From NCBI GenBank assembly GCA_043732705.1, contig JAYTHE010000032.1, forward strand, positions 66,005 through 130,004: a DNA stretch of 64,000 nt, read 5' to 3'. The position numbers and the translations under genes were made by a program. This DNA comes from Candidatus Omnitrophota bacterium (GTDB lineage: Bacteria; Omnitrophota; Omnitrophia; Omnitrophales; Aquincolibacteriaceae). Positions 35,064-55,562 of this stretch are shown here, piece by piece; the stretch's first letter is position 1, and every line of letters begins with the position of its first letter. The notes below the pieces were generated by a model that saw only the letters and a list, made by a program, of their open reading frames with translations, searched no databases and was not told the origin of the DNA.

Positions 35064-35107
35064 GTGCCCGTAGCTCAGTTGGATAGAGCAACAGATTTCT
35101 AATTTGA
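35064..35107 (+). pseudogene. 3'-truncated tRNA-Arg(TCT): acceptor 5' strand, D-arm and anticodon arm only
   Basis: GTGCCCG-TA-GCTCAGTTGGATAGAGC-A-ACAGA-TTTCTAA-TTTGA; no T-arm or 3' acceptor strand follows. Confidence 0.6.
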
Positions 35108-35584
35108 TTCAGCTGTTTTCATAACTACTTAAAAAATAACGCTTTTTATTGTCAGTTCAACACTTGCGCGAAAATCTCTTGTTGATTAATATACTCTAAA
35201 ATGCCCAATTTACCGAAGTTAGACAGGGGACAGGTACAAAAGCAGGTCTGTTTGCAGGAGTTTTCAGGGTATCTCCTTATCCTGATCAAACTAGCCACTG
35301 CTATAGAATATAGAGACTTTCTCTATACGAGGGCAGGTTGGTTGAACTCCATTTTTTAATATTAGCTTTCACTAACGATGAAGGCAAGTTTTGAGCATGA
35401 AGCTGTTGCTTCAGTTCAAAGATATGTCAGACCGAAGGCACATGGTACCACCCGCAAAAGAAATCAATCTTTTTTTTCAAGAGAGTGATATGCAAATGCA
35501 ATGATTCCGAACGCAATAAGCAAAACTGCAAAAATTGCATTTTGGTTCATAAAAAAACTGATTTTATACCCTGATTTTTAGCAA

Positions 35585-35734
35585 TTAAAGTTTTTTATTT
35601 CCACCGATAAGATTAACCAACACCATGACCACGGCAACAACGAGCAGGATATGAATAAATCCACCCATGGTATAACTGCTTACTAAACCCAAAACCCATA
35701 AAACTAAAAGCACAACAGCAATTGTGTACAACAT
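35585..35734 (-). CDS. lmo0937-family small membrane protein (49 aa)
   Basis: MLYTIAVVLLVLWVLGLVSSYTMGGFIHILLVVAVVMVLVNLIGGNKKL read from the minus strand; below the ORF-track cutoff. Confidence 0.55.
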   Translation of the reverse strand: MLYTIAVVLLVLWVLGLVSSYTMGGFIHILLVVAVVMVLVNLIGGNKKL

Positions 35735-35752
35735 ACACGCTCCTTATAGTTG

Positions 35753-35788
35753 TCGCATCCGAGTGAAAATTTTTTCACTCGGATGCGA
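35753..35788. terminator. perfect palindromic (bidirectional) terminator downstream of the BON gene
   Basis: tcgcatccgagtgaaaa-tt-ttttcactcggatgcga. Confidence 0.65.
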
Positions 35789-35797
35789 AGTTTATTC

Positions 35798-36592
35798 TTA
35801 GATATTTTTAGGAGTGTTAACTGACATATTGTTGACGATGCTTTGAACGCCGACAATATCGCTCGTGAGTTTTGTCACGAGGTCTTTTTCCGCGCCATTT
35901 TTAGCGTCACCGTTTAATGTCACGATACCGTCCTTGGTCGAGACGGAAGTTTTAACTGCGCTCGTAGAGCGATGAGTCAAAAGCGCCATTTTAACCTGAG
36001 CGGTAATCGACGCATCATCAATTTTCTCTTGCATCGTTTGTTTTGTATCTCCCTTGACCGTTTGATCCGAATTACTTTGTGCATTTGCGACAGTCATTTC
36101 ATTTTTAACTTCCCGAACACCTTCAATATCCGCGTATTCAGCAGTCAATTCCTTTTGAGATTCGCTGGCCGCTTCTCCGCGCAATGTGACAATGCCTTCC
36201 TCGACATACACCTGTGTGTTCGTGGCGCTTACATTTCGGTGGAAGAGCAGCGCAGCTTTGATATTCAGCGCAAGCCACGCATTCGATTTTTCGTCCGGAT
36301 AGCCTACTTTGAGTTCTAAGAGGTTATCAACTTTGGTAACGCCCGGCAGATTGGATACAGTTTCTTGAGCCAATGCTTTGTGGGATTGTTGATTGACTGT
36401 TCCTGACAAGGTCACCATACCGTTTTTGGAAGTCGCTTTGACAGCGTCCTCTTTGAGGTAGGTTTTGAACACATAGGATTCTTTAGCGGAGGACTCAATA
36501 CGATCATCCATTTCGGAAGCACGAAGCGGCGTGCTTGCTGACAGAAGAGCCATTACAGCCACGGTTAGAATTCGTTGATAATTAAATTTCAT
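35798..36592 (-). CDS. periplasmic OsmY-like protein with three BON domains
   Basis: Signal peptide plus three repeats of GxVTLxGxV...xVxGVxxVxNxL; RBS aaggatgg before the ATG at 36592. Confidence 0.8.
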   Translation of the reverse strand: MKFNYQRILTVAVMALLSASTPLRASEMDDRIESSAKESYVFKTYLKEDAVKATSKNGMVTLSGTVNQQSHKALAQETVSNLPGVTKVDNLLELKVGYPDEKSNAWLALNIKAALLFHRNVSATNTQVYVEEGIVTLRGEAASESQKELTAEYADIEGVREVKNEMTVANAQSNSDQTVKGDTKQTMQEKIDDASITAQVKMALLTHRSTSAVKTSVSTKDGIVTLNGDAKNGAEKDLVTKLTSDIVGVQSIVNNMSVNTPKNI

Positions 36593-36658
36593 AGAACCAT
36601 CCTTCGTTTTTAGTTTGTTTTGCGATCCGAGCATCATGGCTCGAAAGAAAGTAAAAAA

Positions 36659-36674
36659 CTATGGGGTTAAACCC
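36659..36674 (-). promoter_or_regulatory. GGGG-N4-CCCC-ATA regulon motif copy (upstream of the BON gene)
   Basis: Minus strand GGGTTTAACCCCATAG, ~62 nt upstream of the BON start. Confidence 0.5.
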
Positions 36675-36783
36675 TATTGCAACCTTTTATTGAACGTAAG
36701 GGTTTGCCTGATAGGCCGATGTAGGCAATCGGCTTATAGTTACATGGATTTGATCCAAAGAATTATCGCAGCCGCCGGGCAGG

Positions 36784-37557
36784 GTGTTTATGCCGAAAAA
36801 GTTAAAACAGATGATTCTCAAGCATAAAGTTGTGAGTAGAAGACTCGCAACAAGAGAACAGCATTACAGTCACTTGCTGGAGCAGTCGCGCTACAGTGAA
36901 AAGCATTTTCGCCGCCTGGCCCGCCAGATTCTTCTGACGCAAGAAAAGGAACGTAAACAAATCAGCCGCGAGCTTCACGATGGAATCGCCCAGACTTTGG
37001 CGGGAATCAATCTTTATCTTGAGACGCTCAAGGTCAAGACCGCCGTCAGTGGCAATGGCTCCACAAAAAAAATCACGCTTGCCCAAAGTCTTGTCGAAAA
37101 ATCGTTGAAAATCGTGCTGGGCTTTGCTCGTGACCTGCGTCCGACGCTTTTGGATGATTTGGGGCTTTTCCCTGCTTTGCAAGCGCATATGAAAAGCTTT
37201 ACAAAACGCACCGGTATTTTGATCCGTTTTAAAACTTTTCAAGGTGAGGAGAAATTAAACAGTGTTAAACGCACGGTGCTTTACCGCGTTGCGCAAGCCA
37301 CTCTTGAAAATGTCGCACGGCATGCGCAGGCGAGCCTTGTGAAAATTAAAATTCAAAAAATAACCCGCTTCATTCAAATGGAAATCAAAGATAACGGAAA
37401 ATCTTTTCGAGTTAAGAACTTGTCACCGGTTACAAAAAGTAATCGGTTGAGTTTGCATGGTATGCGTGAGTATGTTGAGATGGTAGGGGGGCGCTTTACC
37501 GTAAAATCTATAATGGGCATCGGCACAACGGTTAAGGTTGAGGTTCCATTCCTATGA
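36784..37557 (+). CDS. cytoplasmic sensor histidine kinase, HisKA_3 (NarX/DegS-type) + HATPase_c
   Basis: Phospho-His box ELHDGIAQTL; no TM segments; coiled-coil N-terminus. Confidence 0.8.
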   Translation: MFMPKKLKQMILKHKVVSRRLATREQHYSHLLEQSRYSEKHFRRLARQILLTQEKERKQISRELHDGIAQTLAGINLYLETLKVKTAVSGNGSTKKITLAQSLVEKSLKIVLGFARDLRPTLLDDLGLFPALQAHMKSFTKRTGILIRFKTFQGEEKLNSVKRTVLYRVAQATLENVARHAQASLVKIKIQKITRFIQMEIKDNGKSFRVKNLSPVTKSNRLSLHGMREYVEMVGGRFTVKSIMGIGTTVKVEVPFL

Positions 37558-38243
37558 AAAAAAACACCGCGAGGACCACAGTTTTGCTTGTGGATGATCA
37601 CGCTGTGCTCCGTGAAGGGCTTCGGATGGTACTGGAAGCCGAAAAAGATATGCACGTCATCGCCGAGGCTCGCAGCGGGCGTGAGGCTGTTGAGTTTGTT
37701 AAACAGTTTCGGCCCGATGTGGTTGTCATGGATATTGCCATGCCGCTTCTCAATGGATTTGAAGCCGCCAGGCAGATCATAAAATCTTTTTCCGCCACAA
37801 GAATTTTGATTCTTTCGGCCTATAGTGATGATGAGTACATTGATCAAATGATCGCGATCGGTGTCGCCGGGTACTTGATCAAACAAAGCTCCGCGCAGAT
37901 TTTATCTAAAGCAATACGAGAGGTCAGCAAAGGCCGCTTGTTTTTCAGCGCGGAAATTGCAAAGCGCCTCGAAGAGAAAAATAAAAAGTCATTGGGGCGC
38001 AATGGAGTCCTTAAAAATAAAAATATACGATTGAGTTCGCGCGAAGCCGAAGTCCTTCAGCTGATTGCTGAAGGCAAAGCGAATAAGGAAATTGCTTCAG
38101 AATTAACGATTAGTATTAAAACAGTCGAGAAGCACCGCCAACATCTGATGGAAAAACTCAATATTCATGATACCGCCGGGCTGACTCGCCACGCTATTTC
38201 TGCGGGAGTGATTGAAAGTAGTATTCAGTTGCCCGTTCGTTAG
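37554..38243 (+). CDS. NarL/LuxR-family response regulator (REC + HTH)
   Basis: Receiver Asp in VVVMDIAMP; C-terminal LSSREAEVLQLIAEGKANKEIASELTISIKTVEKH. Confidence 0.85.
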   Translation: MKKNTARTTVLLVDDHAVLREGLRMVLEAEKDMHVIAEARSGREAVEFVKQFRPDVVVMDIAMPLLNGFEAARQIIKSFSATRILILSAYSDDEYIDQMIAIGVAGYLIKQSSAQILSKAIREVSKGRLFFSAEIAKRLEEKNKKSLGRNGVLKNKNIRLSSREAEVLQLIAEGKANKEIASELTISIKTVEKHRQHLMEKLNIHDTAGLTRHAISAGVIESSIQLPVR

Positions 38244-38288
38244 GCTCCTGCGGAAAGATGATTGTTTTCAACTCATTAGGGGAATACC

Positions 38289-38303
38289 CCATATTGTCTG
38301 TCT
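38289..38303 (+). promoter_or_regulatory. GGGG-N4-CCCC-ATA regulon motif copy
   Basis: GGGGAATACCCCATA, then 21 nt, then TACGAT; ~55 nt upstream of 38358. Confidence 0.5.
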
Positions 38304-38357
38304 TGTTTACAGCATACGATCTTGTCCAAGAATGGTTTTCAACCTAAAGAGGAATGA

Positions 38358-38699
38358 ATGAATAATCCTGAAGCAAAGACACCGCTCGCCACCAAAGCAT
38401 CGCAATCAAATTTAAAGGATGTCGAAAAAGTTAACCGCAACGAAAAAGAAGCCGGATCTCGAGAAGATTGGGAGGGGGGCGCATCACGTCCAATGGACGC
38501 GATAGTTCCGGAGGAAAAACTTCCCAATAGCAGCTCCGCAAAAAATTTACAGGCTCAGGCTGAAAGTGTTCCTAAAACACCGAGTGGTGATAATGGGCCG
38601 CCCGAGAATCTGCAATCTCTCCCAACTCAAGATACGCATACAGTGAGTCCGGAACAAGAAGTTGAAAATAAGCCCAAGCGGCAGCGACTTCCTTTTTAA
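38358..38699 (+). CDS. intrinsically disordered hydrophilic protein, SREDWEGG / GPPxNLQSLPTQxTH family, paralog 1
   Basis: Low-complexity, highly charged; shares two blocks with 50468..51049. Confidence 0.55.
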   Translation: MNNPEAKTPLATKASQSNLKDVEKVNRNEKEAGSREDWEGGASRPMDAIVPEEKLPNSSSAKNLQAQAESVPKTPSGDNGPPENLQSLPTQDTHTVSPEQEVENKPKRQRLPF

Positions 38700-38732
38700 G
38701 CGGTAATTTTCTCCGATCTAACCTTGCCCTGA

Positions 38733-38747
38733 GGGTAATACCCCATA
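38733..38747 (+). promoter_or_regulatory. GGGG-N4-CCCC-ATA regulon motif copy
   Basis: GGGTAATACCCCATA, then 22 nt, then TATGAT; upstream of the lipoprotein gene at 38822. Confidence 0.5.
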
Positions 38748-38821
38748 GTTTCATTGATGGACTTAGTCCTATGATCAACTCTGACAACAAAAGCCTGCCC
38801 ACAGGCAGGCAGGAGGAAAAT

Positions 38822-39058
38822 ATGAAAAAATTATTAGTCGCTTCTATGATTTTATCGGTGGCTTTGGGACTGTCGGCGTGTAGTGGTGCGTTTTGGGGCG
38901 GTGCGGGCGGCGGAACAGCTGCGGCAGGCGCGGGCTATGAAGTTAACGCAAAATTAAAGATGGACCAGCTGAAGAAAGATCTCGCTGCAGGTAAGATCAA
39001 TCAGGCTGAATACGATATTCGCGTCGATCAAATTAAAAAAATGTCGCTGATTTATTAA
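38822..39058 (+). CDS. small lipoprotein with Gly/Ala-rich linker and SHOCT-like C-terminal motif, paralog 1
   Basis: Lipobox LSAC; ...LKKDLAAGKINQAEYDIRVDQIKKM; RBS caggagg. Confidence 0.55.
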   Translation: MKKLLVASMILSVALGLSACSGAFWGGAGGGTAAAGAGYEVNAKLKMDQLKKDLAAGKINQAEYDIRVDQIKKMSLIY

Positions 39059-39080
39059 TCGGCATTTAAAAGGGAGCGTC

Positions 39081-39206
39081 ATGAGAAAAATTCAGTGGGG
39101 TTTAATCCTTTTTTGTGTCTTAGGCCTATTTGCAGGTTGTCATAGTGGAATTATGAAAGGTGCCGGATCTGATATGTCCAGAATGGGAGATAGCTTACAG
39201 AAATAA
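39081..39206 (+). CDS. entericidin (EcnA/EcnB)-like small lipoprotein, 41 aa
   Basis: MRKIQWGLILFCVLGLFAGCHSGIMKGAGSDMSRMGDSLQK; lipobox plus the G-x-G-x-D-hxxxG entericidin pattern; below the ORF cutoff. Confidence 0.7.
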   Translation: MRKIQWGLILFCVLGLFAGCHSGIMKGAGSDMSRMGDSLQK

Positions 39207-39236
39207 AACAGTCAACTGTTTAAGGTAAAGGCTTTT

Positions 39237-39641
39237 ATGAAAAAAAATGTGGGCTTGTGGATTGATCACCGTGAGGCAGTGATGGTTTTTGCTTCACCTG
39301 AAGGGGAAGTCATCAAGAAAATCAGTTCTGCCGCTGAGAAGCATGCCGGCAGGATTGATGGTGAGCGCTCAACTGCGCCTTATGAGTCACAGCTGGTGCA
39401 CGCAGATGACAGCCAACAACGTGCTCTCACGGGACATTTAAACCATTACTATGATGAAGTGATTGCCGACATTCATGACGCAGAATCCATTCTGATATTT
39501 GGCCCCGGCGAAGCAAAAACCGAGCTTAAAAATAGAATGCAGCTTTCAAAAGCGAATTGTTCCGCGGTTATTGTTGAAGCTGCAGACAAGATGACTGACC
39601 CGCAAATTGCGGCAAAAGTTTGGGACTATTTTAAAATTTAA
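39237..39641 (+). CDS. eRF1-like 'host attachment protein' (baeRF-type) family protein
   Basis: Pattern GLWIDHREAVMVF ... ILIFGPGEAKTEL ... VIVEAADKMTDPQIA resembles PF10116-like proteins. Confidence 0.4.
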   Translation: MKKNVGLWIDHREAVMVFASPEGEVIKKISSAAEKHAGRIDGERSTAPYESQLVHADDSQQRALTGHLNHYYDEVIADIHDAESILIFGPGEAKTELKNRMQLSKANCSAVIVEAADKMTDPQIAAKVWDYFKI

Positions 39642-40191
39642 CGATAAAGCATCAAAATTCTTGCCGTATTAAAGTGAGTATAAAATTTATTTAGCGATGT
39701 CATAAATTTCTGACATATTTCTATCATTTCAGACATAGCGCCCGCATTTTAAAGCCTTCCCCTCGAAAGAAACAGGCATGAAGATTGCCTGGTTTTCAAA
39801 TAATATATCCTGAAAGTTTGAGGGAGGCTTTATGCTCGGAAAATCAACTATGGGTATAAAGTTTTCAGCGAAAAAGGTAGGTCTTTGGGCCAAGTTTAAA
39901 AAATGCGAACTGAAGCGGTTAAGGGCGTGGATAGATTAGTATTTTAAACGCAAAGCGGGCTGACCCGCCCGCCTGAAATCGAAAAAATTTAGAATGAGAT
40001 TGATTCGTCGCGGAGATGATCGAGGAGACAAAGAAGATCTGCTCTTAGAACGCTTAAAAAAATTCCTTGTGAGTACGGTTGGCAAAAGAGATTTAAATCT
40101 TAGGTGTTCTCCCAGTTTGTCTTTGTAAGGGGAAATAAATCTATTTTTTTTATTTGCTTTGCCTATATTATAGTCACGCGAAGATAATTTT

Positions 40192-40241: not shown

Positions 40242-42545
40242 GTGTTAACCACTTTCTATTCTCAAATTTTACGCTTAATCCGTAAATGGATTTCAGGAAG
40301 AGAGTTTTTTCTTTCGGCCGTAATTTTGGTTTCTCTGCTTTCGGTGAATTCATGGCTTTCTTTCCGCAATATCAATCTCGTGCGCCATGACGCCGAATTA
40401 GTTATTCATACCCAAAAAGTAATTAACGCTCTTGAGGCGGCGCTTTCATTTGCAAAAGATGCGGAGACCGGGCAGCGAGGCTATCTTCTTACCGGCAAAC
40501 AATCCTATCTCGAACCGTATAATCATGCGGTACCGGCCATTTATGGGCAATTGGCGCTGCTGAAACAATTGACCCGTGATAATGCATCGCAGCAGAAACG
40601 CCTGGATGAATTTAAAGCGCGCATTGGATTAAGGTTGAAAGTGCTGGATGAAGTTATCAATGCACAAGAAGGTTTACGCTATCAGTTTACCCGTAAGACT
40701 TTATTGGGCGACCGCGGCAAAGTCGAGATGGACGCCTTGCGCCGGCAGGCCGCTACCATTGAAAAGGTAGAACGCGATTTGTTAGAGCAAAGAACGGAAC
40801 GCTCCACTGTCTCATACCACATCGCGCTTTTCACCAGTTTTCTGTCAAGTTCGATCGGGTTAGGCTTGCTTGTCGCGTTTCTTTTTCTTTTAAGGAAACA
40901 TTTAATTTCTAAAGACAAAGATATGGCCGCGATTTTTGAGCAGCACGAAAGATTTCGAATCACAATCGGAAGTATCGGCGATGCGGTTCTGACCACAGAT
41001 ACACAGGGCCGCGTTACATACTTAAATGAAATTGCGCAAAAATTGACAGGCTGGAAAGAAAAAGATGCTTTCGGGAAGCCTCTAGAGGTAGTTCTTCACA
41101 TTTTAAATGAAAGTTCCCGCCGTATTGTTGAAAGCCCCGCATATCAGGCGTTAAGAGAAGGCACCATTGTCGGGCTGGCTTATGGGACGCTTCTGATCGC
41201 GAAGGACGGAAAAGAAATTCAAATCGAGGACAGTGCCGCACCGATCCGCAATCAGCAAGGTGATGTTGTGGGGGTTGTGCTCGTGTTCCGGGATGTAACT
41301 GATCGTAAAAAATCAGAAGCTGTTTTACTCGAAAGCGAAAAGCGTTATCGACAGTTAATTCAAGGTCTGCCCGCAGCTGTTTATACCTGTGATGCTGACG
41401 GCTACATTATGCTTTATAACCCCGCAGCGGCTGTGCTTTGGGGCCGGGAACCCGAGTTGGGGAAAGAGCTGTGGTGCGGCTCGCATCGAATCTATAGGTC
41501 AAACGGAGAACCTCTCCCGTTAGAGCAATGCCCCATGGCCGTTGTTTTGGAAGGAAAAGAGCCGAAGCGCGGTCAGGAAATTATTATTGAAAGGCCCGAT
41601 GGTACGCGGCGGAATGTTCTACCTTATCCCCAGGCGATTCTTAATAAAGACGGAATTCTCATGGGTGCGATTAACATGCTTGTGGATATCACCGAGCGTA
41701 AAAAAGCAGAGCAAGATTTAATCCGCACGGCCAAAGAGCTTGCAGCTTCAAACACTGAATTAGAAAAAGCGAATATACAGCTTAAGAAATCGACGCATGA
41801 ACTTGAACTGGCAAATATAAGCCTAAAAAAACTCGATGAGATGAAAACGAATTTTATTGCGATCGCATCGCATGAACTCAAGACCCCTCTGACCGCGATG
41901 AAAGGTTTTTTAAGTTTAGTCATCGAAGGCGCGAACGGAAAGCTGCGAGCCGCACAAAAGGAAAGTTTACTTTTTGTAAAAGAAGGCAGTGATCGAATGC
42001 ACCGGCTGATTGACAGTCTATTGAATCTATCGAAAATGGAGCTTGGGCAAATGCCGATGAAAATGAGCGAGAAGGTAAGTGTTAAGAGAATTTTGAGCGA
42101 GACCGTGCGAACATTTCATAATTTAGCCGAAAAGAAGAGCATTTCAATTCAAGAGGAAGTCGAAAGTGATTTAAAAGAAGTTTGTGGCGACGAAGACCGT
42201 TTACGGGAAGTGTTTGATAATCTTGTTTCCAATGCTCTGAAATATACTCCACGTGGCGGAACTATTTGGATTCGAGCGAAAAATAATTCAAAAAAAGTAG
42301 AAATTAAAATTGAAGATACCGGAATTGGAATGAGAAAAGAAGATCTTTGTAAAATATTTGAACCTTTCCAGCACTTGAGGCGCAGCGGCTTGGAAGGCGA
42401 AGAAAGCACCGGATTGGGTTTAGCGTTAGTCAGAAAAATTATCGATGCGCATGGCGGAGAAGTTCAAGTTGAAAGCGTGCTCGGAAAAGGTTCGATTTTT
42501 ATGGTGCTGCTTCCGCAAAAAAATTTGATGGAGGCGGCGCGATGA
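40242..42545 (+). CDS. sensor histidine kinase: CHASE3 - TM - 2x PAS - HisKA - HATPase_c
   Basis: GTG start; CHASE3-like N-terminus, PAS blocks, H-box IASHELKTPLTAMKG, G-boxes. Confidence 0.85.
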   Translation: MLTTFYSQILRLIRKWISGREFFLSAVILVSLLSVNSWLSFRNINLVRHDAELVIHTQKVINALEAALSFAKDAETGQRGYLLTGKQSYLEPYNHAVPAIYGQLALLKQLTRDNASQQKRLDEFKARIGLRLKVLDEVINAQEGLRYQFTRKTLLGDRGKVEMDALRRQAATIEKVERDLLEQRTERSTVSYHIALFTSFLSSSIGLGLLVAFLFLLRKHLISKDKDMAAIFEQHERFRITIGSIGDAVLTTDTQGRVTYLNEIAQKLTGWKEKDAFGKPLEVVLHILNESSRRIVESPAYQALREGTIVGLAYGTLLIAKDGKEIQIEDSAAPIRNQQGDVVGVVLVFRDVTDRKKSEAVLLESEKRYRQLIQGLPAAVYTCDADGYIMLYNPAAAVLWGREPELGKELWCGSHRIYRSNGEPLPLEQCPMAVVLEGKEPKRGQEIIIERPDGTRRNVLPYPQAILNKDGILMGAINMLVDITERKKAEQDLIRTAKELAASNTELEKANIQLKKSTHELELANISLKKLDEMKTNFIAIASHELKTPLTAMKGFLSLVIEGANGKLRAAQKESLLFVKEGSDRMHRLIDSLLNLSKMELGQMPMKMSEKVSVKRILSETVRTFHNLAEKKSISIQEEVESDLKEVCGDEDRLREVFDNLVSNALKYTPRGGTIWIRAKNNSKKVEIKIEDTGIGMRKEDLCKIFEPFQHLRRSGLEGEESTGLGLALVRKIIDAHGGEVQVESVLGKGSIFMVLLPQKNLMEAAR

Positions 42546-42925
42546 AAAAGCATATTCTTATTGTCGAAGATGACTTTGCGATCGGCAAGCTCCTTCAAAT
42601 GTCTTTTACGCATGCAGGATTTACCGTTTCTTTGGCGCGCGATGAAGCCTCTTTTTGCGAGTTGGCGAAAAATACATCCCCCGATTTTATTTTGCTTGAT
42701 CTGATGATTAACAATCGAAAAAGCATCGAATTTTATGAGGCATTAGTTGAAGAAGGGTTGAATCCGCATATCCCGGTGATTGTTTTGACAGCGTCTGTCC
42801 AGGGATTGGTTTCTGTGAAAGGCCCCTCCGGAAAATCTTATCGGGCCTTCGGCAAGCCTTTCGAAACTAAAAACCTGATTGAATTAGTGGGTTCTTCTTT
42901 TTCAGTCAAGCCTTCGAAAGCCTAA
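42542..42925 (+). CDS. single-domain response regulator (receiver only), paralog family member
   Basis: ILIVEDDF...ILLDLMI...; ATGA overlap with the kinase. Confidence 0.75.
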   Translation: MKKHILIVEDDFAIGKLLQMSFTHAGFTVSLARDEASFCELAKNTSPDFILLDLMINNRKSIEFYEALVEEGLNPHIPVIVLTASVQGLVSVKGPSGKSYRAFGKPFETKNLIELVGSSFSVKPSKA

Positions 42926-43056
42926 AAAACCCGTGTAAAAGTGTCTCGTCTTTCGTACAGAATTCTTAAAAATCTGACACATTTCAGCCGCACAAAACAG
43001 CTCTTTTAAGAAATAATATTTTTGTTCCCAATAAGAAGCATGCGCAGTGGCCGAGC

Positions 43057-43072
43057 TGGCACTCCTGATGCT
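43057..43072 (+). promoter_or_regulatory. candidate sigma-54 promoter (TGGCAC-N5-ATGCT)
   Basis: cTGGCACtcctgATGCt, GG-N10-GC spacing correct; ~120 nt upstream of the ferritin-like gene. Confidence 0.4.
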
Positions 43073-43191
43073 ACTCTGATGTTGGGGTTTTCTCAAAGAA
43101 TGAGCTTCAGACGCTTGCCGATGGGGGCTAAAAATGAACAATGAAGATTGGGATTTAGAATAATTCAATTGAATATTATTCGAATTTTTAA

Positions 43192-43788
43192 ATGAAAAAG
43201 GAAAAAATGAAAAATAAAGGTTCTGATTTGGAGCAAAAATCAAAAAGCCGGTTTGTGATGGATGTAAAGGAAATCCGCCGCCGCGCCCGCAAACATGTCG
43301 AAGAAGGTGCTGTCACGGAAGGTTACGAAGGTGACCGCAAGACTATCTTAAAGCTGCTCAATGATGCGCTTGCGACCGAAATTATTTGTGTATTACGCTA
43401 CAAGCGCCATTATTTCATGGCGCAAGGCATTCATGCGAAACCGATTGCTGAAGAATTCCAGGAGCATGCCACTGAAGAACAGGCGCATGCCGACAGTATC
43501 GCGGAAAGAATTATGCAGCTGGGCGGTGAACCTGACCTGAATCCTGAAGGCTTGACTACCCGCAGCCACTCACAGTATGTGGAAGGCGAGTCTTTGCTTG
43601 ATATGGTTAAAGAAGATTTGGTTGCGGAAAGAATCGCGATTGATTCTTACAAAGAAATCATCGCCTATGTCGGCGGCAAAGACCCGACGACCCGCCGTCT
43701 TATGGAGGAAATTCTTTCGAAGGAAGAAGAACATGCGGATGATATGGCGGATATTTTGGCGGCCCTAGATCCGGCCAAAAAAATGTGA
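43192..43788 (+). CDS. bacterioferritin/ferritin-like di-iron protein
   Basis: Ferritin-like four-helix bundle with paired E..H ligand motifs (EIICVLRY...EEQAHADSIAERI). Confidence 0.65.
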   Translation: MKKEKMKNKGSDLEQKSKSRFVMDVKEIRRRARKHVEEGAVTEGYEGDRKTILKLLNDALATEIICVLRYKRHYFMAQGIHAKPIAEEFQEHATEEQAHADSIAERIMQLGGEPDLNPEGLTTRSHSQYVEGESLLDMVKEDLVAERIAIDSYKEIIAYVGGKDPTTRRLMEEILSKEEEHADDMADILAALDPAKKM

Positions 43789-43812: not shown

Positions 43813-43998
43813 ATGGAATTGATTTTTGAGTGGATAGCGTGGTTTGCCTTGTTCTTGGGATGTATTTTTATTTTATGGAAACTGTACTTATTCACGACGT
43901 GGAACATTGAGAGAACTGTTTTTCTTGGCGGAATCGGCGCTTATCTGGGTTCGAAGTCAAAAAACGCGCGGAAGAAGCAAGCCGTGGCCGCGAAATGA
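43813..43998 (+). CDS. hypothetical small membrane protein (61 aa)
   Basis: Two hydrophobic helices; stop overlaps the GT4 start (ATGA). Confidence 0.3.
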   Translation: MELIFEWIAWFALFLGCIFILWKLYLFTTWNIERTVFLGGIGAYLGSKSKNARKKQAVAAK

Positions 43999-45276: not shown

Positions 45277-45402
45277 ATGAAAAGGTTTATGTTGGTTTTA
45301 ATCATGATTCTTTTTGTGGGAGCATTCAATGGTTGTCATAGCGGAACGATGCGTGGAGTCGGTTCGGACATTTCGAGGGTCGGAGACCACTTGCAGAAAT
45401 AA
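45277..45402 (+). CDS. entericidin-like small lipoprotein, paralog 2 (41 aa)
   Basis: MKRFMLVLIMILFVGAFNGCHSGTMRGVGSDISRVGDHLQK; RBS gaggaggg. Confidence 0.7.
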   Translation: MKRFMLVLIMILFVGAFNGCHSGTMRGVGSDISRVGDHLQK

Positions 45403-45484: not shown

Positions 45485-45895
45485 ATGGATCAAAAGAAAA
45501 GTGCTCCCGATGCGGGAGTGGTTAAACCCAGAGTTCTTGTCGTGGATGACGAGCAGTCCATGCGGCGTCTTTTGTGCCATACTCTCTCTCTCTCCGGCTT
45601 TAATATTTCAACTGCAGCTAATGCGGCAGAATTTCGTGAGCAAGTTTTTATTCAAAAACCAGAGGTTATTATTCTCGATATTTTGCTGGGTGACCATAAC
45701 GGTCCCGAAGTTTATTTGGAACTGCTGGATGAGGGCTTGGATTCAAATATTCCCGTCATTTTTCTTTCGGCACTGATTGAAAAAAGGTGGATGCCCAAAT
45801 CGATTGAGAGTAACCCGCGCCATGCATTTATCAGCAAGCCGTTTGAGTACCAAGAACTAATACTCAAATTGCGAGAGTTTGCGGCGCTTAAATAA
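45485..45895 (+). CDS. single-domain response regulator (receiver only), paralog family member
   Basis: VLVVDDEQ...IILDILLGDHNGPEVY...IPVIFLSAL. Confidence 0.75.
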   Translation: MDQKKSAPDAGVVKPRVLVVDDEQSMRRLLCHTLSLSGFNISTAANAAEFREQVFIQKPEVIILDILLGDHNGPEVYLELLDEGLDSNIPVIFLSALIEKRWMPKSIESNPRHAFISKPFEYQELILKLREFAALK

Positions 45896-48779: not shown

Positions 48780-48790
48780 TCAATAAAGTT

Positions 48791-50149
48791 ATGAATAAAA
48801 CTGTTCTTGTTGTGGATGATGACAGTCGAATCGCGAATCTCATTTCGACTCGCTTAAAGAAGCAAGGATATTTGCCCGTGATTGTTGAAGATGGCAACAG
48901 CGCGATTGAATGGGTCGAGCGTAATGAAGCGGCATTGATTATGTTGGATGTCCGGCTTCCAGATATTAACGGTGTTGATGTGTTAAGACAAATCATCAAA
49001 AAGAAACCGGGTCTATTTGTAATTATGATTAGTGCGCATGCGGACGTTCAAAACGCGGTGGAATGTATCAAAATCGGAGCCACGGACTTTCTTGAAAAGC
49101 CGTTTGAATTTCCTACCTTTGACGCAAAAGTGAAGCAGATTTTTCAGCAGCTGGGATTAAAGGCCGAGGTTGCCGCTTTAAAACAGGAATTAGGAATTAC
49201 TTATAAAGATAAAAGTTTAATCGGAAAAAGCCCCGCGATGATTAAGGTTTTTCAATCGATTGGCATCGCGGCAAAAAGTGAAGCCAGTGTCTTGATTCAC
49301 GGAGAAAGCGGAACAGGAAAAGAGCTTGTTTCAAGAGCAATTCATTTTAACGGGACACAAAAACAGGGCCCTTTTATGGCGGTGAATTGCGGAGCCATTC
49401 CGGAAAACCTTCTTGAAAGTGAATTATTTGGACATGAGAAGGGATCTTTTACGGGCGCGGTAGGCCGTAAGCTGGGAAAATTCGAGGAAGCGCAAAACGG
49501 AACTATATTTTTAGATGAAATCGGGGAAATGCCACTGTCATTGCAGGTTAAATTGCTGCGGGTGCTGCAAGAGCGAGAAATCGTCCGCGTGGGCGGAACG
49601 GTCTCCATTCCCATTCATGCCCGCTTTATTACGGCGACAAACCGCGATTTAAAGAAAATGGTGCAAGAAGGGTTGTTCCGCGAAGATCTTTATTACCGGA
49701 TCAATGTATTTCCGATTCGTTTGCCGCCCTTACGCGAAAGAAAAGAGGATATTACAGATCTTTTCCGCCACTTCGTAAACCGGCATAGCGAAGGCAAAGC
49801 GTCGGTTAAGACAGATGAAGGCGCGTTAAGAAGACTGGAAGAGTATGACTGGCCCGGAAATATCCGCGAGCTAGAAAATTTTGTCGAACGTCTTTTGCTT
49901 TTATTGGGAGAAAAAAATCACATTACCGAAAAAGATATCGATGCTATGGATGGATTAAGCGATGCTCCTGCTTCAGAAAAAGCCGAAGCGCCTAAAGAAA
50001 GAGCTCAGGTGTTGGGCGAGACGGAGCGGGCAATTCTTGAAAAGGCATTGCAAGACGCCAATGGTAATATTGCTAAGGCTTCTAAGCTTGTTCAGATGAG
50101 CCGTGATTCTTTTTATCGGAAGATGAAAAAATATTCAATTGCCCGGTAA
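48791..50149 (+). CDS. sigma-54-dependent response regulator (NtrC family: REC - AAA+ - Fis-type HTH)
   Basis: GESGTGKE Walker A, GSFTGA (GAFTGA-type) motif, C-terminal HTH. Confidence 0.9.
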   Translation: MNKTVLVVDDDSRIANLISTRLKKQGYLPVIVEDGNSAIEWVERNEAALIMLDVRLPDINGVDVLRQIIKKKPGLFVIMISAHADVQNAVECIKIGATDFLEKPFEFPTFDAKVKQIFQQLGLKAEVAALKQELGITYKDKSLIGKSPAMIKVFQSIGIAAKSEASVLIHGESGTGKELVSRAIHFNGTQKQGPFMAVNCGAIPENLLESELFGHEKGSFTGAVGRKLGKFEEAQNGTIFLDEIGEMPLSLQVKLLRVLQEREIVRVGGTVSIPIHARFITATNRDLKKMVQEGLFREDLYYRINVFPIRLPPLRERKEDITDLFRHFVNRHSEGKASVKTDEGALRRLEEYDWPGNIRELENFVERLLLLLGEKNHITEKDIDAMDGLSDAPASEKAEAPKERAQVLGETERAILEKALQDANGNIAKASKLVQMSRDSFYRKMKKYSIAR

Positions 50150-50467
50150 GTCTTATAACAAGAACGGCTGTTATCTCCATTTGTGCTTAAAACGCGCTAT
50201 GCGATGCGTTAAAGTCCGCTATTGCTAAGCTGGATGGGGCCGCGCTGAATTTTCCAGCCTGCATGGCTTCCCAAGGCTTTTCCTTCCTAGTCCGACAATT
50301 GCAAAAAACCGTCAGAGCCCTCTGACACTATTTTCTTAATTGAGATTTTTTCAAAAGACGTTTTTTTCTTAAGTTGTTTATCTGTATGAAGATATGACTT
50401 TGGCATGCGCCGTGGATATACAGAGTCAACGGAATGAAATACGTGAGGGAAAAAGGAGGGCTTGTTT

Positions 50468-51049
50468 ATGGAAAAGAGTCATTACGAACAAATCAAAAAT
50501 AATAATAATTTCAATTCATCGACGAGGGGATCCAAACGCAGACCACCGATGCAAAGTGAGTTTGATGAGCCTAAATTATCCTATTGCGATGTCCCTCAGC
50601 CGGCTGTAAGTGCTTGCGGGATAGCTCAATCGACAAATGCGCAAGCCTGTGATCAAACAGCTTATTCACGCTCGCAAGGAACTTCTGATCAGACTTTTAA
50701 AAATAAAAAAGATCAGAAAGACGCTGTGTCCCGTGAAGACTGGGAAGGCGGCGGGTCGCGTCCCGCGGCAGCATTCTCAGACGAAATGTTTCCCCATAAT
50801 AACCCTGCAAATGACTTACAGACACAAGCTGACAGTGTTCCAAAAGCTAAATATGGCGACTTTGGGCCGCCTAAAAATCTTCAATCGCTTCCGACCCAAA
50901 ATACGCATGAGCTGGCTGCGGAAGAGGAGCTTGATGATGAAGTGCGTGTAAAAGCAGCGAAGAACTCCGGAGAAGAAGTCCATTGGAACGAAAGAGCGGA
51001 CCGCCTTAAAAAGCGGGGAGAAGATTATAGAGGGCGTCGCAGTGCTTAG
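50468..51049 (+). CDS. intrinsically disordered hydrophilic protein, SREDWEGG / GPPKNLQSLPTQNTH family, paralog 2
   Basis: Shares SREDWEGGGSRP and GPPKNLQSLPTQNTH blocks with 38358..38699; RBS aaaggaggg. Confidence 0.55.
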   Translation: MEKSHYEQIKNNNNFNSSTRGSKRRPPMQSEFDEPKLSYCDVPQPAVSACGIAQSTNAQACDQTAYSRSQGTSDQTFKNKKDQKDAVSREDWEGGGSRPAAAFSDEMFPHNNPANDLQTQADSVPKAKYGDFGPPKNLQSLPTQNTHELAAEEELDDEVRVKAAKNSGEEVHWNERADRLKKRGEDYRGRRSA

Positions 51050-53603: not shown

Positions 53604-53777
53604 ATGTATGGAGTCATCGGAACCTTGGTTTTAATTCTGGATGTCGCTGTGATCGTCGATTGCCTGCAGTCGCCTATGAGCGCAGCAGAAAAATGCCTTT
53701 GGATCTTTTTGGTTCTGTTTTTGCCTGTCTTAGGCATGCTGCTTTACTTCTTATTGGCGAAACGACCTATTTTATAA
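53604..53777 (+). CDS. PLDc_N-family small membrane protein (57 aa)
   Basis: MYGVIGTLVLILDVAVIVDCLQSPMSAAEKCLWIFLVLFLPVLGMLLYFLLAKRP. Confidence 0.55.
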   Translation: MYGVIGTLVLILDVAVIVDCLQSPMSAAEKCLWIFLVLFLPVLGMLLYFLLAKRPIL

Positions 53778-53839
53778 CGAAAAGAACAGGAAGAATAAAA
53801 AGATGGGCACAGCCAGGATCGAGTCACTTCTTCGGTGCT

Positions 53840-53856
53840 GGGGTAAATGCCCCATA
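53840..53856 (+). promoter_or_regulatory. GGGG-N4-CCCC-ATA regulon motif copy
   Basis: GGGGTAAATGCCCCATA, then 21 nt, then TAAGCT; upstream of the DUF883 paralog at 53953. Confidence 0.5.
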
Positions 53857-53952
53857 TGAACGAAGTCAGTGGAAGGTTAAGCTTGCGTTTACGAAATAAG
53901 GGCTTTTTTGAGGTGAATCACGGAAATTTTAAATAAAAAAGGAAAACATAAT

Positions 53953-54294
53953 ATGACAACTCATTCGAAAGAAAATGAAAAGAAAGACAAAATTCACGAG
54001 GCATTGGAATTGTTGAATGAAGCCGCCAAAGAAAAAAAAGACGAGGTGTATGGCGTGATTAATTCCAAATATGAGCATCTTCGTGAAATGTTTGCCGGCG
54101 CGGTTGAGACAGGGCAGGACTTTGCGGACGACGCGAAGAAAAATATTTCCAAAACACTTTCAGCGGAAGAGAAGAAATTGAAACAAATCGCCGCTCAATG
54201 GGATAAGGAAGTTCGTAAAAATCCTTGGACTTATATCGGCGGAGCGGCGCTTGGCTCGCTTTGTTTGGGGCTTTTACTGGGCCGGAAGAAATAG
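53953..54294 (+). CDS. DUF883 (ElaB/YqjD) membrane-anchored stress protein, paralog 2
   Basis: ~60% identical to 52899..53240; PWTYIGGAALGSLCLGLLLGRKK tail. Confidence 0.75.
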   Translation: MTTHSKENEKKDKIHEALELLNEAAKEKKDEVYGVINSKYEHLREMFAGAVETGQDFADDAKKNISKTLSAEEKKLKQIAAQWDKEVRKNPWTYIGGAALGSLCLGLLLGRKK

Positions 54295-54318
54295 TAAGCA
54301 GTCAACTTGCTAAAAAGG

Positions 54319-54729
54319 ATGTTTATGAAGTTGAAAAATGCTTGGTTTATCGCAGAGCTTTTAGGCGCATTCGGAGTTGTGCAAAAGTACAAGAAAAATA
54401 CGGCAGAGTGGGTGCGGATTCAAACCGCGATGGTTTGGCTTAAGAGTATTGCTTTTGCACGTGATCTTGTGATTTATCAGGTGGGGATTTCAGCTTGCGT
54501 TTTAGTTCTGGTTATTAGTGCGGTTTTGATGGAAGTGGCGTTCATTTTTTGTTTGCCAATGAGCCTGCAATCAAAGATAACCGCTGTCTTCGTAGTGAGC
54601 GGAATTGATTTTGCGGCGGCGTTAAGCTTTCTGGGTTACTTTTTATCTTCTGAGCGTTGGCTTAAGCAGGCGGCCAGTTACAACGCTTGCGTTTCGGAAA
54701 TGATACAGAAAACGAATTCAAAAAAATAA
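54319..54729 (+). CDS. hypothetical inner-membrane protein, YqjE (DUF1469)-like position and size
   Basis: ~135 aa with 2-3 TM segments immediately after a DUF883 gene, as in the E. coli yqjD-yqjE arrangement. Confidence 0.4.
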   Translation: MFMKLKNAWFIAELLGAFGVVQKYKKNTAEWVRIQTAMVWLKSIAFARDLVIYQVGISACVLVLVISAVLMEVAFIFCLPMSLQSKITAVFVVSGIDFAAALSFLGYFLSSERWLKQAASYNACVSEMIQKTNSKK

Positions 54730-54744
54730 AAGAGAGGTATTGAT

Positions 54745-54903
54745 ATGGCAACGTCAACAATTTTACTCATCGTGCTTATAGTATTACTGATTGGCGGATT
54801 GCCGACATGGCCGCATAGCAAGAGTTGGGGATATTATCCTGCCGGCGGAATAGGGACTGTACTTCTGATTGTTTTGATTTTGGCATTGATGGGCCGAATC
54901 TAA
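54745..54903 (+). CDS. DUF3309-family small membrane protein (52 aa)
   Basis: MATSTILLIVLIVLLIGGLPTWPHSKSWGYYPAGGIGTVLLIVLILALMGRI. Confidence 0.6.
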   Translation: MATSTILLIVLIVLLIGGLPTWPHSKSWGYYPAGGIGTVLLIVLILALMGRI

Positions 54904-54941
54904 CATTTTTCAAAACGAAGTACAAAACAGCAGGAGGCTTT

Positions 54942-55469
54942 ATGTTGACTAAGATCGAAGAGAAGAAAACTGAGGTTGCGGTTGGCATTGCAGTCGACAA
55001 GCAGGTTGATATTGCGCTTCCCAAAAATGATCGTAAGGAGCTGGCGCATGCTCTCTCGCTTATATTGGCCGATACGTACGCGCTTTATTTGAAAACTCAA
55101 AACTTTCATTGGAATGTGAAGGGTGCACGTTTTCCATCGTTGCACATTCTTTTTGAAAGCCAATATCTCGAATTAGCGGCTGCGGTGGATTTAATCGCAG
55201 AACGGATCCGGGCGCTTGGATGTCTTGCCCCGGCAAGCTTCAGCGAGTTTGCGAAATTGACCTGTCTAGAAGAGGGCAATTCTCAAATTCCTGCAGCAGA
55301 AATGGTCGCGGTCCTCATGCATGATCACGAACGAGTAGCGCAAAGTATGCGTGCTATAGTGCCTAGGGCAGAGAAGACACATGATCACGCTTCCGTTGAC
55401 CTTCTTTCACAAAGAATATCAACGCATGAAAAGACAGCATGGATGCTTCGCAGCACAAACGAAACCTAA
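54942..55469 (+). CDS. dps: DNA starvation/stationary phase protection protein Dps
   Basis: LKTQNFHWNVKG...HILFESQY ferroxidase-centre region; RBS caggagg before the ATG at 54942. Confidence 0.85.
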   Translation: MLTKIEEKKTEVAVGIAVDKQVDIALPKNDRKELAHALSLILADTYALYLKTQNFHWNVKGARFPSLHILFESQYLELAAAVDLIAERIRALGCLAPASFSEFAKLTCLEEGNSQIPAAEMVAVLMHDHERVAQSMRAIVPRAEKTHDHASVDLLSQRISTHEKTAWMLRSTNET

Positions 55470-55562
55470 GTCAAACCAGATAAGCGTTCGTCTTTAACGG
55501 GCTTTTTTGCGCCGAGTGTAAAGACACAGAGACGAGTTGCTTTTTTTGGGATAGGATGAAGT

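Follow-up and report, generated by a model that had tools for sequence, protein, structure and literature searches.

A probable composite stress and envelope locus in Omnitrophota with predicted NarL-type and sigma-54-type circuits upstream of a sugar-enzyme operon

Introduction

BON-domain proteins, ElaB, DUF1328 proteins and entericidins are classic members of general-stress regulons in Proteobacteria. Genes for similar proteins are gathered in a locus of a Candidatus Omnitrophota bacterium (Aquincolibacteriaceae; assembly GCA_043732705.1), which is considered here and lies between ~35.6 kb and at least 63.5 kb of a 64,000-nt stretch of contig JAYTHE010000032.1 (positions 66,005 to 130,004, forward strand), hereafter the window. 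The Omnitrophota are widespread, mostly uncultured, often ultra-small and possibly host-dependent bacteria, and literature searches turned up nothing specific on this gene set, on this locus, or on stress and gene regulation in Omnitrophota. The reading favoured here, probable though well short of certain, is that of a composite stress and envelope locus in which two regulatory modules stand upstream of a glyco-enzyme operon. From the arrangement of genes and motifs, two circuits, one built on a NarL-type and the other on an NtrC-type regulator, seem to induce some twenty small genes for the envelope, iron and stress protection, as well as the adjacent sugar-enzyme operon, by way of two recognisable DNA signals.

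Among described systems, the enterobacterial RpoS regulon (osmY, elaB/yqjD/ygaM, ytjA, ecnB, dps) has nearly the same effector repertoire, and the succession of an ElaB-like gene and a gene for a small membrane protein recalls yqjD-yqjE (the regulon and its small proteins are treated in PMC5437024; for a yqjD-yqjE-like arrangement compare PA3040-3042, PMC11302039). However, the locus holds no alternative sigma-70-family factor, its genes are clustered rather than scattered, and its control is predicted to be exerted by a NarL-type regulator and sigma-54. The PhyR-NepR-EcfG system of Alphaproteobacteria similarly unites several kinases and stand-alone receivers with small hydrophilic, membrane, Dps and BON proteins, whereas in the locus PhyR, NepR and an ECF sigma factor are missing, the outputs are DNA-binding NarL and NtrC proteins, and the kinases are of the HisKA and HisKA_3 rather than the HWE/HisKA_2 type. 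No gene for RpoS, sigma-B/Rsb, EcfG or a PhyR-type sigma/anti-sigma protein was present among the open reading frames (ORFs) scanned with Pfam in 35-64 kb, and the only match to Sigma70_r4_2, below the cut-off, was the GerE helix-turn-helix of the NarL regulator; the initial annotation, made from the DNA alone, was right to set the locus apart from sigma-B and PhyR-type systems.

Sigma-54-dependent stress and developmental circuits, such as ZraSR and PspF in Enterobacteria, Hk2-Rrp2-RpoN in Borrelia and CtcB-CtcC-sigma-54 in Chlamydia, share with the locus an NtrC-family AAA+ activator paired with a kinase and, as far as they are predicted for the locus, -24/-12 promoters with upstream repeats and envelope or stress targets. 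The activator encoded here belongs to this family, but orthology to the named systems is not supported; the putative targets here are small stress proteins, a ferritin and a GT4 glycosyltransferase, P2-type promoters carry TTG(A/G/T) at -12, and one of the first genes of the target operon, in several lineages the one just past the promoter, encodes a conserved single-domain receiver. Chlamydiae are possibly phylogenetically near Omnitrophota. The DevS/DosT-DevR dormancy regulon of Mycobacterium resembles the locus in its HisKA_3 and NarL pair and in a palindromic G/C-rich box before many small stress genes; autoregulation, predicted for the locus, would be another common trait, as might an aeRF1-like protein (in mycobacteria Rv2629/Balon). 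By contrast, the kinase in the window lacks a GAF or haem sensor domain, the box has a different sequence, USP and alpha-crystallin are missing, and the link to aeRF1 is not significant.

For comparison, contigs of relatives were used, numbered L001, L002, L084-L086 and L167-L173. Among relatives with a usable contig, L001 (GCA_043718225.1; NtrC protein 87% identical) stands nearest; its NarL genes lie beyond the region compared, and as regards the NarL module it is counted for the box only. L173 is a metagenome-assembled genome of Desulfuromonadaceae, i.e. from outside Omnitrophota, while L170 shows, of the operon downstream, just the EEP gene before its contig ends, and the L167 contig ends after the gene for a protein of 770 amino acids (aa). 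Families were assigned by Pfam and NCBIfam thresholds, the Pfam scans including small ORFs in two 600-nt non-coding gaps, and tRNAs were sought with ARAGORN and Rfam (tRNA gathering score 29). A generic scan for sigma-70 promoters and terminators did not rise above shuffled sequence and was used only for the hairpin at 35753 and the hexamers at 38306. A metagenome scan with the NtrC protein yielded, among the matches listed, only paralogues at no more than 48% identity.

The NarL-type module and its predicted box

The first module is encoded on the + strand at 36784-38243, where the gene for a HisKA_3 kinase (36784-37557) overlaps that for a NarL/GerE regulator (37554-38243) by 4 nt. By gene content it is a NarL/HisKA_3 system, a HisKA_3 plus HATPase kinase adjoining a REC plus GerE regulator (Pfam). 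Around it, a 16-nt motif, TATGGGGYATTWCCCY, occurs in four intergenic copies in the window (36660, 38278, 38732 and 53841); with up to three mismatches allowed, the window has 7 matches against 1.9 expected. Box 1 (TATGGGGTTAAACCCTAT, 36660-36678, - strand) faces the gene for a 3xBON protein and has an orthologous counterpart in L170, L171 and L172. Box 2 (AGGGGAATACCCCATA, 38278-38293, + strand) lies 65 nt upstream of the first gene for a protein with a SREDWEGG motif and abuts a sigma-70-like -35 hexamer at 38306. Box 3 (AGGGTAATACCCCATA, 38732-38747, + strand) precedes the lipoprotein/entericidin/134-aa trio, as an equivalent box at 12153 in L172 precedes the orthologous trio, and box 4 (GGGTAAATGCCCCATA, 53841-53856, + strand) is found 97 nt upstream of the second ElaB-like gene, with a variant at 14915-14930 in L001.

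The box extends to other genomes. In L170, L171 and L172 the divergent region between BON and kinase genes carries a pair of boxes, CTATGGGGTGAAACCCTAT and TAGGGTATTACCCCATAG, and further boxes in these genomes precede the operon of a 764-aa protein, DUF3309 (a weaker variant), BrkB, an entericidin-like gene and the lipoprotein trio. Altogether ~14 boxes were found in five genomes, at least 13 of them intergenic, against ~1 expected in 139 kb, and in all of them CCCCATA points toward the gene, whose start codon is 25-100 nt away. With its consensus GGGT-N5-6-CCCCATA (GGGGT-N5-6-ACCCC), the box forms an imperfect palindrome, as expected for a GerE-type dimer. It co-occurs with the HisKA_3/NarL pair in four genomes, the fifth, L001, keeping a variant copy, and is absent from the loci that have only the NtrC module (L085, L167, L168). 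Because the box travels with the HisKA_3/NarL pair, the NarL-type regulator is the obvious candidate for its binding partner. The operator-like motif reported by the initial annotation in four modules is real, and it also stands next to NarL-type pairs in other genomes. In L173 (1-6003), a 65% identical NarL-type regulator lies beside BON, DUF5670, a PAS kinase and two stand-alone receivers without the box, so that either the module predates the box or it has passed between phyla.

Divergently from the kinase operon, as also in L170 and L171, the - strand encodes the secreted 3xBON (OsmY-like) protein (35798-36637; Pfam BON E=1.7e-43 over three stretches; true start probably at 36592), followed by a small membrane protein of the DUF5670 (lmo0937) type (35585-35734, - strand; PF18919, E=6.5e-16), which adjoins the BON/NarL module in L170, L172 and L173 as well. 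A perfect hairpin with a 16-bp stem (35753-35788) separates these tandem genes and is probably a terminator or attenuator within a DUF5670/BON operon.

Downstream of the regulator, the + strand encodes the first disordered protein with a SREDWEGGxSRP motif (38358-38699). The motif, of the form S(R/N)EDWEGG(A/G)SRP, is shared with the product of 50468-51049 and with proteins of L001 and L168 (sites at 38424-38460 and 50696-50735 in the window, 11724 in L001 and 11767 in L168). These proteins are otherwise of low complexity and rich in K, E and Q, and have no match among the families of Pfam and NCBIfam. Their gene is the first behind the NtrC-linked promoter in the window, L001 and L168; in the window one also stands behind the NarL regulator. 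The lipoprotein trio follows (38771-39641, + strand), with a SHOCT-like protein (38822-39058), an entericidin-like protein of 41 aa (39081-39206) and a protein of 134 aa (39237-39641). It is conserved in L172 directly upstream of the gene for a 754-aa protein, at 70%, 51% and 65% identity. The third member belongs to a family of 134-161 aa (12609-13094 in L172) with invariant VGLWIDHREAV and ILIFGPGEAK.

The third member also enters into a comparison with DosR. In a DosR-like programme of dormancy and ribosome hibernation, the HisKA_3/NarL pair would correspond to DevS/DevR, and the 134-aa protein would be a miniature hibernation factor of the aeRF1/Balon type. The regulator family and the G-rich palindromic box appear to resemble the DevR system, and ILIFGPGEAK presumably recalls the central domain of Pelota/eRF1. 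The best folds for a single-sequence AlphaFold2 (AF2) model of the 134-aa protein are likewise Pelota and Balon/Rv2629, and Balon genes typically lie in stress operons beside OsmY and MarC (PMC10901736). Yet the fold matches are not significant (E=0.04-0.3; predicted local distance difference test, pLDDT, 55), the protein has no sequence match in Pfam, NCBIfam or the PDB, a profile of two sequences reached only chance level (E>0.1), and its 134 residues compare with ~360 in the three-domain Balon. Moreover, Pfam revealed no GAF or haem domain in the HisKA_3 kinase and no regulon of USP, alpha-crystallin and nitroreductase in the window, from which HPF and RaiA are missing too. A DosR-like programme is accordingly very unlikely, the dormancy suggested by the initial annotation is conjecture, and the eRF1-like label of the initial annotation comes down to a non-significant fold hint.

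The NtrC-type module and its predicted promoters

The second module (45485-50149, + strand; Pfam) comprises a stand-alone receiver (REC2, 45485-45895), a HAMP kinase (45879-48779) and an NtrC-type activator (48791-50149). In the activator Pfam recognises Response_reg (8.9e-27), Sigma54_activat (3.8e-71) and HTH_8 (6.3e-12), and a GSFTGA loop is present, which places it in the NtrC family. Orthologous kinase-NtrC pairs occur in six further lineages (L001, L084-L086, L167, L169). The kinase, of 966 aa, has the order HAMP-HisKA-HATPase-REC-HisKA-HATPase, with two complete cores around a receiver; in more distant relatives the orthologues, 590-650 aa long, are built with a single core. Similarity at the DNA level persists among the three kinase C-termini of the locus (42399-42501, 47352-47454 and 48630-48732), which suggests local duplication and fusion. 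In L168, amtB-glnB (ammonium transporter and P-II; 8127-9814) and a tRNA-Arg(CCG) gene (6525-6600) lie upstream of the NtrC gene and there is no kinase; the amtB-glnB neighbour hints at a nitrogen link or simply at a rearrangement.

Downstream of the NtrC gene, an element of the form TGGCAY-N5-KTG was present in 8/8 lineages, with ~0.05 expected by chance in those gaps. It reads TGGCATGCGCCGTGG in the window (50401, + strand), TGGCACGGGCGGTGG in L001, TGGCATGGATATTGA in L084, TGGCATGGCAATTGA in L085, TGGCACGGCGATTGA in L086, TGGCATAGCAATTGA in L167, TGGCATGGAAGTTGG in L168 and TGGCACGGCAGTTGT in L169. The relaxed -12 form emerged only when orthologous intergenic regions were compared; the canonical TGGC-N8-TGC is not enriched in the window (6 against 10.7 expected). 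In the window the element, at 50401-50415, forms part of a region termed P2 (50290-50415, + strand), in which it is preceded by activator-site-like repeats, GTCCGACA ... GTCAGAGCCCTCTGACA, at 50290-50327. A second region, P1 (42973-43071, + strand), contains the repeat TCTGACACATTTCAG (42973-42987) and the sigma-54-type promoter TGGCACTCCTGATGC (43057-43071), which is fully canonical (TGGCAC-N5-ATGC) and lies 84 nt downstream of its TCTGACA repeat, ahead of genes for a ferritin, a 61-aa protein and a GT4. Promoter and repeat are conserved in L001 (4854-5050, promoter at 4958), though L001 has no ferritin gene. TGTCAGA/TCTGACA half-sites, inverted or repeated, are found ~65-85 nt upstream of the promoters of the window and in most of the eight lineages, at varying distances.

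The leader of P1 contains an upstream ORF of nine codons, MNNEDWDLE* (43134-43163, + strand), whose peptide is the same in L001 (~5020-5050), where the codons differ by a synonymous change. The EDW at its centre is reminiscent of the SREDWEGG motif encoded by the first gene behind each regulator. A candidate third site, of low confidence, lies at 39697-39789 (+ strand), with repeats ATGTCATAAATTTCTGACAT and TTTCAGACATAG and the sigma-54-like AGGCATGAAGATTGCC at 39774; this last element is palindromic and could also be a hairpin, and the site has no comparative support.

The operon behind P2 (50468-53777, + strand; Pfam/NCBIfam) is collinear in L001, and similar sets are present in L167 and L168. 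It encodes, in this order, the second SREDWEGG protein (50468-51049), REC3, REC4, a 78-aa lipoprotein, a second SHOCT-like lipoprotein, DUF1328, the first, tail-anchored ElaB/DUF883-like protein, a small membrane protein, a 41-aa protein and PLDc_N. It is followed by the second ElaB/DUF883-like protein, a 140-aa membrane protein, DUF3309 and Dps (53953-55469, + strand; Pfam/NCBIfam; collinear in L001), the probable start of Dps being 54942. The 140-aa membrane protein occupies the position that YqjE holds after yqjD. In L167 and L168, too, the 770-aa gene has DUF3309 and Dps upstream of it; of these two, L085 keeps only DUF3309.

Upstream of the NtrC module, the genes behind P1 (43192-45402, + strand; Pfam) encode a ferritin-like protein (43192-43788), the 61-aa membrane protein, a GT4 glycosyltransferase (43995-45266) and a second entericidin-like lipoprotein (45277-45402). 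The 61-aa protein and the GT4 are syntenic in L001, and the GT4 had been missing from the initial gene list. Further upstream lie a CHASE3-PAS-PAS histidine kinase (40242-42545) and the receiver REC1 (42542-42925), both on the + strand (40242-42925; Pfam). In the 600-nt gap ahead of the CHASE3 kinase there is a basic ORF of 35 aa with a strong Shine-Dalgarno sequence (39832-39939).

The stand-alone receivers, at 42542, 45485, 51042 and 51558, are mutual paralogues and, with the NarL, NtrC and hybrid-kinase domains, bring the number of REC domains to seven. All keep the phospho-acceptor Asp in the alignment, and REC3 (51042) is degenerate, lacking the conserved lysine and the acidic pair.

The sugar-enzyme operon and the anatomy of the locus

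Both modules lead to an operon at 55563-63488 (+ strand; Pfam/NCBIfam), here called the hub, which encodes a 771-aa protein (55563-57878), a GT4, a phosphodiesterase-EEP protein and an EEP protein (57875-63488). The 771-aa protein has no sequence match in Pfam, NCBIfam or the PDB. Its homologues at E<=1e-5 number more than 4500, fusions to GtrA among them, and the best 120 reach at least 49% identity. An AF2 model from an alignment of 30 sequences (pLDDT 79) consists of a beta-sandwich and an (alpha/alpha)6 barrel, and its fold matches are GH15 glucoamylase/glucodextranase and GH94/GH65 phosphorylases (E ~1e-15), so that the modelled protein resembles a glycosidase or phosphorylase. The GT4s are nearest, below thresholds, to glycolipid or inositol-phosphate glycosyltransferases (NCBIfam).

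The hub lies directly downstream of the NarL module in L170-L172 and of the NtrC module in L085, L167 and L168. In the first group, the NarL regulator is 72-82% identical to that of the window, DUF5670 and/or BON is divergent from HisKA_3-NarL, and genes for a 754-764-aa protein, a GT4 and phosphodiesterase/EEP follow downstream, directly or past a few small genes; no BON gene was called in L172. In the second group, the NtrC protein is 62-66% identical to that of the window. In L085 and L167 a kinase, NtrC, one or more receivers and small proteins precede a protein of 759-770 aa, with GT4 and EEP next in L085 and L168. The small proteins found among the three loci are DUF1328, ElaB-like, SOD, DUF3309, PLDc_N and Dps, and a Response_reg protein downstream of NtrC was called in L085 and L167 only, none being called in L168. 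The window combines the two modules, one behind the other, ahead of 771aa-GT4-EEP-EEP, and L001 has the same NtrC part. Relative to the order in L172, the window thus holds ~16 kb extra (39.6-55.6 kb, with the CHASE3 kinase and the sigma-54 module) between the trio and the hub.

Since the hub is the most conserved partner of both regulators, the primary role of the locus could be remodelling of envelope glycoconjugates or glycolipids; the regulators would then adjust the cell surface, for instance for attachment, with the small membrane proteins as accessories. The second GT4 behind P1, the nearest relatives of the GT4s, the GtrA fusions and the fact that nearly all small effectors are lipoproteins or membrane-anchored all point in that direction. 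However, the locus also encodes ferritin and Dps, and relatives encode SOD and catalase, all of them cytoplasmic proteins of oxidative and iron stress, and BON, ElaB, DUF1328 and entericidin belong, as noted above, to proteobacterial general-stress regulons. An envelope role as the primary one is rather improbable, and it overlaps the composite stress and envelope reading more than it excludes it.

Effector families

The initial annotation listed more than fifteen small stress-type effectors. Above Pfam thresholds are 3xBON, DUF5670, DUF1328, DUF3309, PLDc_N, ferritin and the Dps-type ferritin, and for these the list stands. The other labels fared less well, and no ORF matched the claimed KGG protein. 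The labels entericidin, SHOCT and DUF883 correspond to weak matches, all below cut-off: entericidin reached E=0.007 in Pfam, the weak match coming from the paralogue Ecn2 and not from Ecn1, and SHOCT E=0.008-0.02. The two 113-aa proteins, which have a hydrophobic C-terminal tail, matched NCBIfam ElaB over the full length (E=1.5e-6, 28.7 bits against a cut-off of 139) and Pfam DUF883_C at E=0.17. Several types come as paralogue pairs, namely two SREDWEGG proteins, as the initial annotation had it, two 41-aa lipoproteins, two SHOCT-like lipoproteins and the two 113-aa tail-anchored proteins. The claimed position of effector modules behind regulator genes was borne out, as was the count of three histidine kinases and seven response regulators, if the REC domain of the hybrid kinase is included (Pfam); the locus is exceptionally dense in signalling and small stress-type genes.

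Origin of the locus

The best explanation of the region is a conserved, vertically inherited chromosomal locus rather than a recent import. Its modules recur in relatives at 62-87% protein identity and are kept in nine related Omnitrophota loci, where only the arrangement and some of the cargo vary. The best matches of the regulators are all from Omnitrophota: homologues of the NtrC protein form a graded series in the phylum (87, 83, 71, 70 ... 53%) before generic NtrC proteins set in at 47% or less, and the NarL regulator has more than 100 clusters at 64-83% identity, the named ones mostly Omnitrophota. The gradient is comparable to that of a core oxidoreductase subunit, with best matches at 74, 74 and 71%. 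Composition is native as well. Overall G+C is ~2 points below that of the upstream part of the window, but the drop sits at codon position 2 (p=4e-4), which reflects amino-acid composition, and in many intergenic gaps; G+C at position 3 (GC3), at 0.449, does not differ from the 0.458 of the core (p=0.19), and synonymous codon usage follows that of the core with a correlation of r=0.97. Pfam scans of candidate ORFs, including those in the gaps, found no integrase, transposase, other mobility gene or remnant.

The initial annotation had instead described an island of 35-55.5 kb beginning at a truncated tRNA-Arg gene. The fragment is real. At 35064-35102 (+ strand), GTGCCCGTAGCTCAGTTGGATAGAGCAACAGATTTCTAA represents the 5' half of a tRNA-Arg(TCT) gene, with the 5' acceptor strand, a complete D-arm (GCTCAGTTGGATAGAGC), the 5' strand of the anticodon stem and the loop TTTCTAA, past which tRNA similarity stops; a stretch of 24 nt agrees with a tRNA-Arg of L168 in its D-arm region. 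ARAGORN made no call and Rfam scored it at 17.3 bits, below the gathering score, the only tRNA found by these tools in the window being tRNA-Pro (19917-19993). The 3' half that the initial annotation proposed to look for was not found downstream of the fragment, where the matching acceptor strand (CGGGCAC on the + strand) is missing. An intron-containing or split tRNA was considered and rejected, there being no group I intron (Rfam, permissive, 34.8-36.0 kb) and no 3' acceptor strand. As AGA makes up 9.8% of Arg codons in the genes of the window, a functional tRNA-Arg(UCU) must exist elsewhere, and the copy at 35064 is dead. When an element integrates at a tRNA gene, it restores the gene's 3' part, and the remnants are 3' rather than 5' fragments, so that a 5' half is not what such integration would be expected to produce. 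The most likely reading of the fragment is that of a decayed scar, left where the junction is variable, and not of the integration site that delivered the genes; loss of the 3' half by deletion, perhaps along with a former element, is the simplest account, and misassembly, which would hardly yield a clean half-tRNA, is unlikely.

The left edge itself is a real synteny break, though at a distance where breaks are common. The CBS-OFOR-CBS operon that anchors it ends at 34984, and a search of GTDB genomes with its 2-oxoacid:ferredoxin oxidoreductase subunit found only relatives at 71-74% identity, which keep the operon but have downstream of it nothing matching the window and no tRNA. In L171, an AbiE-type toxin-antitoxin, HTH_17 and Replic_Relax (3814-6668), resembling an integrative element, adjoin the BON/NarL module, and the left flank of that module is therefore a variable spot in several lineages. 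At the other end, collinearity with L001 sets in at 43.8 kb, takes in GT4, REC2, the two-core kinase, NtrC, the small-protein genes, DUF3309 and Dps, and reaches past 61 kb; it runs across 55.5 kb into the 771-aa gene, a second GT4 and phosphodiesterase/EEP, at ~80% amino-acid identity, and 55.5 kb is therefore no boundary.

Integration of a genomic island at tRNA-Arg, truncating the gene and importing a self-contained stress or dormancy system, would account for a 5' fragment exactly where synteny with more distant relatives stops, for the lower overall G+C and for mobile-like neighbours at the same flank in L171. Like tRNA-associated islands and integrative elements, the locus has tRNA-derived sequence at one edge and a gene order there that differs from relatives. 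It differs from them in that the fragment is a 5' rather than a 3' one, an integrase and flanking repeats are missing (within the window the fragment is not repeated over 11 nt or more in any meaningful place), GC3 is native and the content is conserved across Omnitrophota genera. Acquisition as an island is thus largely refuted already and highly improbable. Of the initial description, the left boundary survives as a break in synteny, the right boundary at 55500 does not, and composition and codon usage, which it had suggested comparing with the core, set the region apart only at codon position 2. Homologous loci and native composition, which by its own account would speak against an import, are largely what was found. 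Nor is the stretch of 35-55.5 kb self-contained, as 771aa-GT4-EEP at 55.6-63.5 kb is the most constant partner of both regulatory modules.

A proposed model

Gene content, its conservation, the positions and orientation of the cis-motifs and the native composition can be read from the DNA directly; on this ground the following model is built, in which we infer the binding partners of the motifs, the phosphotransfer pairs, the extents of operons and the inducing signals. In the NarL circuit, the soluble HisKA_3 kinase would phosphorylate the NarL/GerE regulator, which would then bind the GGGT-N5-6-CCCCATA boxes. Its predicted targets are BON-DUF5670, its own operon, the first SREDWEGG gene, the lipoprotein/entericidin/134-aa trio, and the string of the second ElaB-like protein, 140-aa protein, DUF3309 and Dps; from box 4, transcription probably reads on into 771aa-GT4-EEP. 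In the NtrC circuit, the membrane-bound HAMP kinase, in the window fused to a receiver and a second core, would phosphorylate the NtrC-type activator, which may bind the TGTCAGA/TCTGACA repeats and activate the putative sigma-54 promoters. Under P1 would come ferritin, GT4 and entericidin, and probably the genes of the circuit itself, and under P2 the second SREDWEGG protein, two receivers, lipoproteins, DUF1328, the first ElaB-like protein and PLDc_N. Further inputs, or sinks for phosphate, are probably supplied by the CHASE3-PAS kinase and the four paralogous single-domain receivers. The output would be envelope-anchored small proteins, iron-sequestering ferritin and Dps, and glycoconjugate enzymes, possibly a functional equivalent of a general stress or stationary-phase regulon that employs two-component systems and sigma-54 rather than an alternative sigma-70-family factor.

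Several points weigh against this model. All its regulatory links are deduced from sequence. The HisKA_3 kinase has only HisKA_3 and HATPase domains in Pfam and no recognisable sensor or transmembrane domain, and the box was not found in the Desulfuromonadaceae locus. The P2-type sites have a canonical -24 but TTG(A/G/T) instead of the canonical TTGC at -12, which may be a lineage-specific promoter variant, and within the 64-kb window, to which the search extended, RpoN is not encoded. Several effector assignments lie below family thresholds. Finally, the NarL and NtrC modules stand apart in other genomes or contigs (L171 versus L086; L172 versus L002), and their coupling may be lineage-specific or only physical.

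Taken further, this last point would mean no more than a neighbourhood of the kind common among signalling genes, in which several independent two-component operons and stress genes adjoin one another, each circuit with its own signal and no common programme. The variable cargo between the anchors (ferritin in the window, catalase/LysR in L001, SOD/GGDEF in L085 and L167), which consists of genes for oxidative stress or signalling, would fit such an assembly, as would the CHASE3 kinase, which has no comparative support, and the separation of the modules. However, the circuits interlock physically: a NarL box (53841) lies within the gene string downstream of NtrC, with a variant at the same place in L001, and SREDWEGG, SHOCT, entericidin-like and ElaB-like proteins are duplicated with one copy per circuit. 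The four stand-alone receivers are paralogues spread over the circuits, and both modules associate independently with the 771aa-GT4-EEP hub and with DUF3309/Dps. A mere juxtaposition is consequently judged unlikely, and the composite stress and envelope locus remains the preferred reading.

Implications

What is new here is a putative regulon of the general-stress type that, in an uncultured phylum, would answer to two-component systems and sigma-54 and for which two cis-codes are newly predicted. The component families are ordinary, nothing mechanistically unprecedented is shown, and the practical value is modest. The locus nevertheless provides a testable regulon model for Omnitrophota, with two predicted cis-codes and ~30 target genes, and it ties three uncharacterised families to one place, i.e. 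the 771-aa glycosidase-fold, SREDWEGG and 134-aa ILIFGPGEAK families. More speculatively, Omnitrophota and possibly neighbouring phyla might have a general stress response without a dedicated alternative sigma-70-family factor, in which a NarL operator code and sigma-54/NtrC with a non-canonical -12 jointly control a clustered regulon, cross-wired via single-domain receivers and including the SREDWEGG and 771-aa families and maybe a single-domain aeRF1/Balon-like factor; this wider proposal is put forward only tentatively. The locus itself would add another case in which the tool-kit of small stress proteins (BON, ElaB, DUF1328, entericidin, Dps) has been kept across phyla while the master regulator was swapped.

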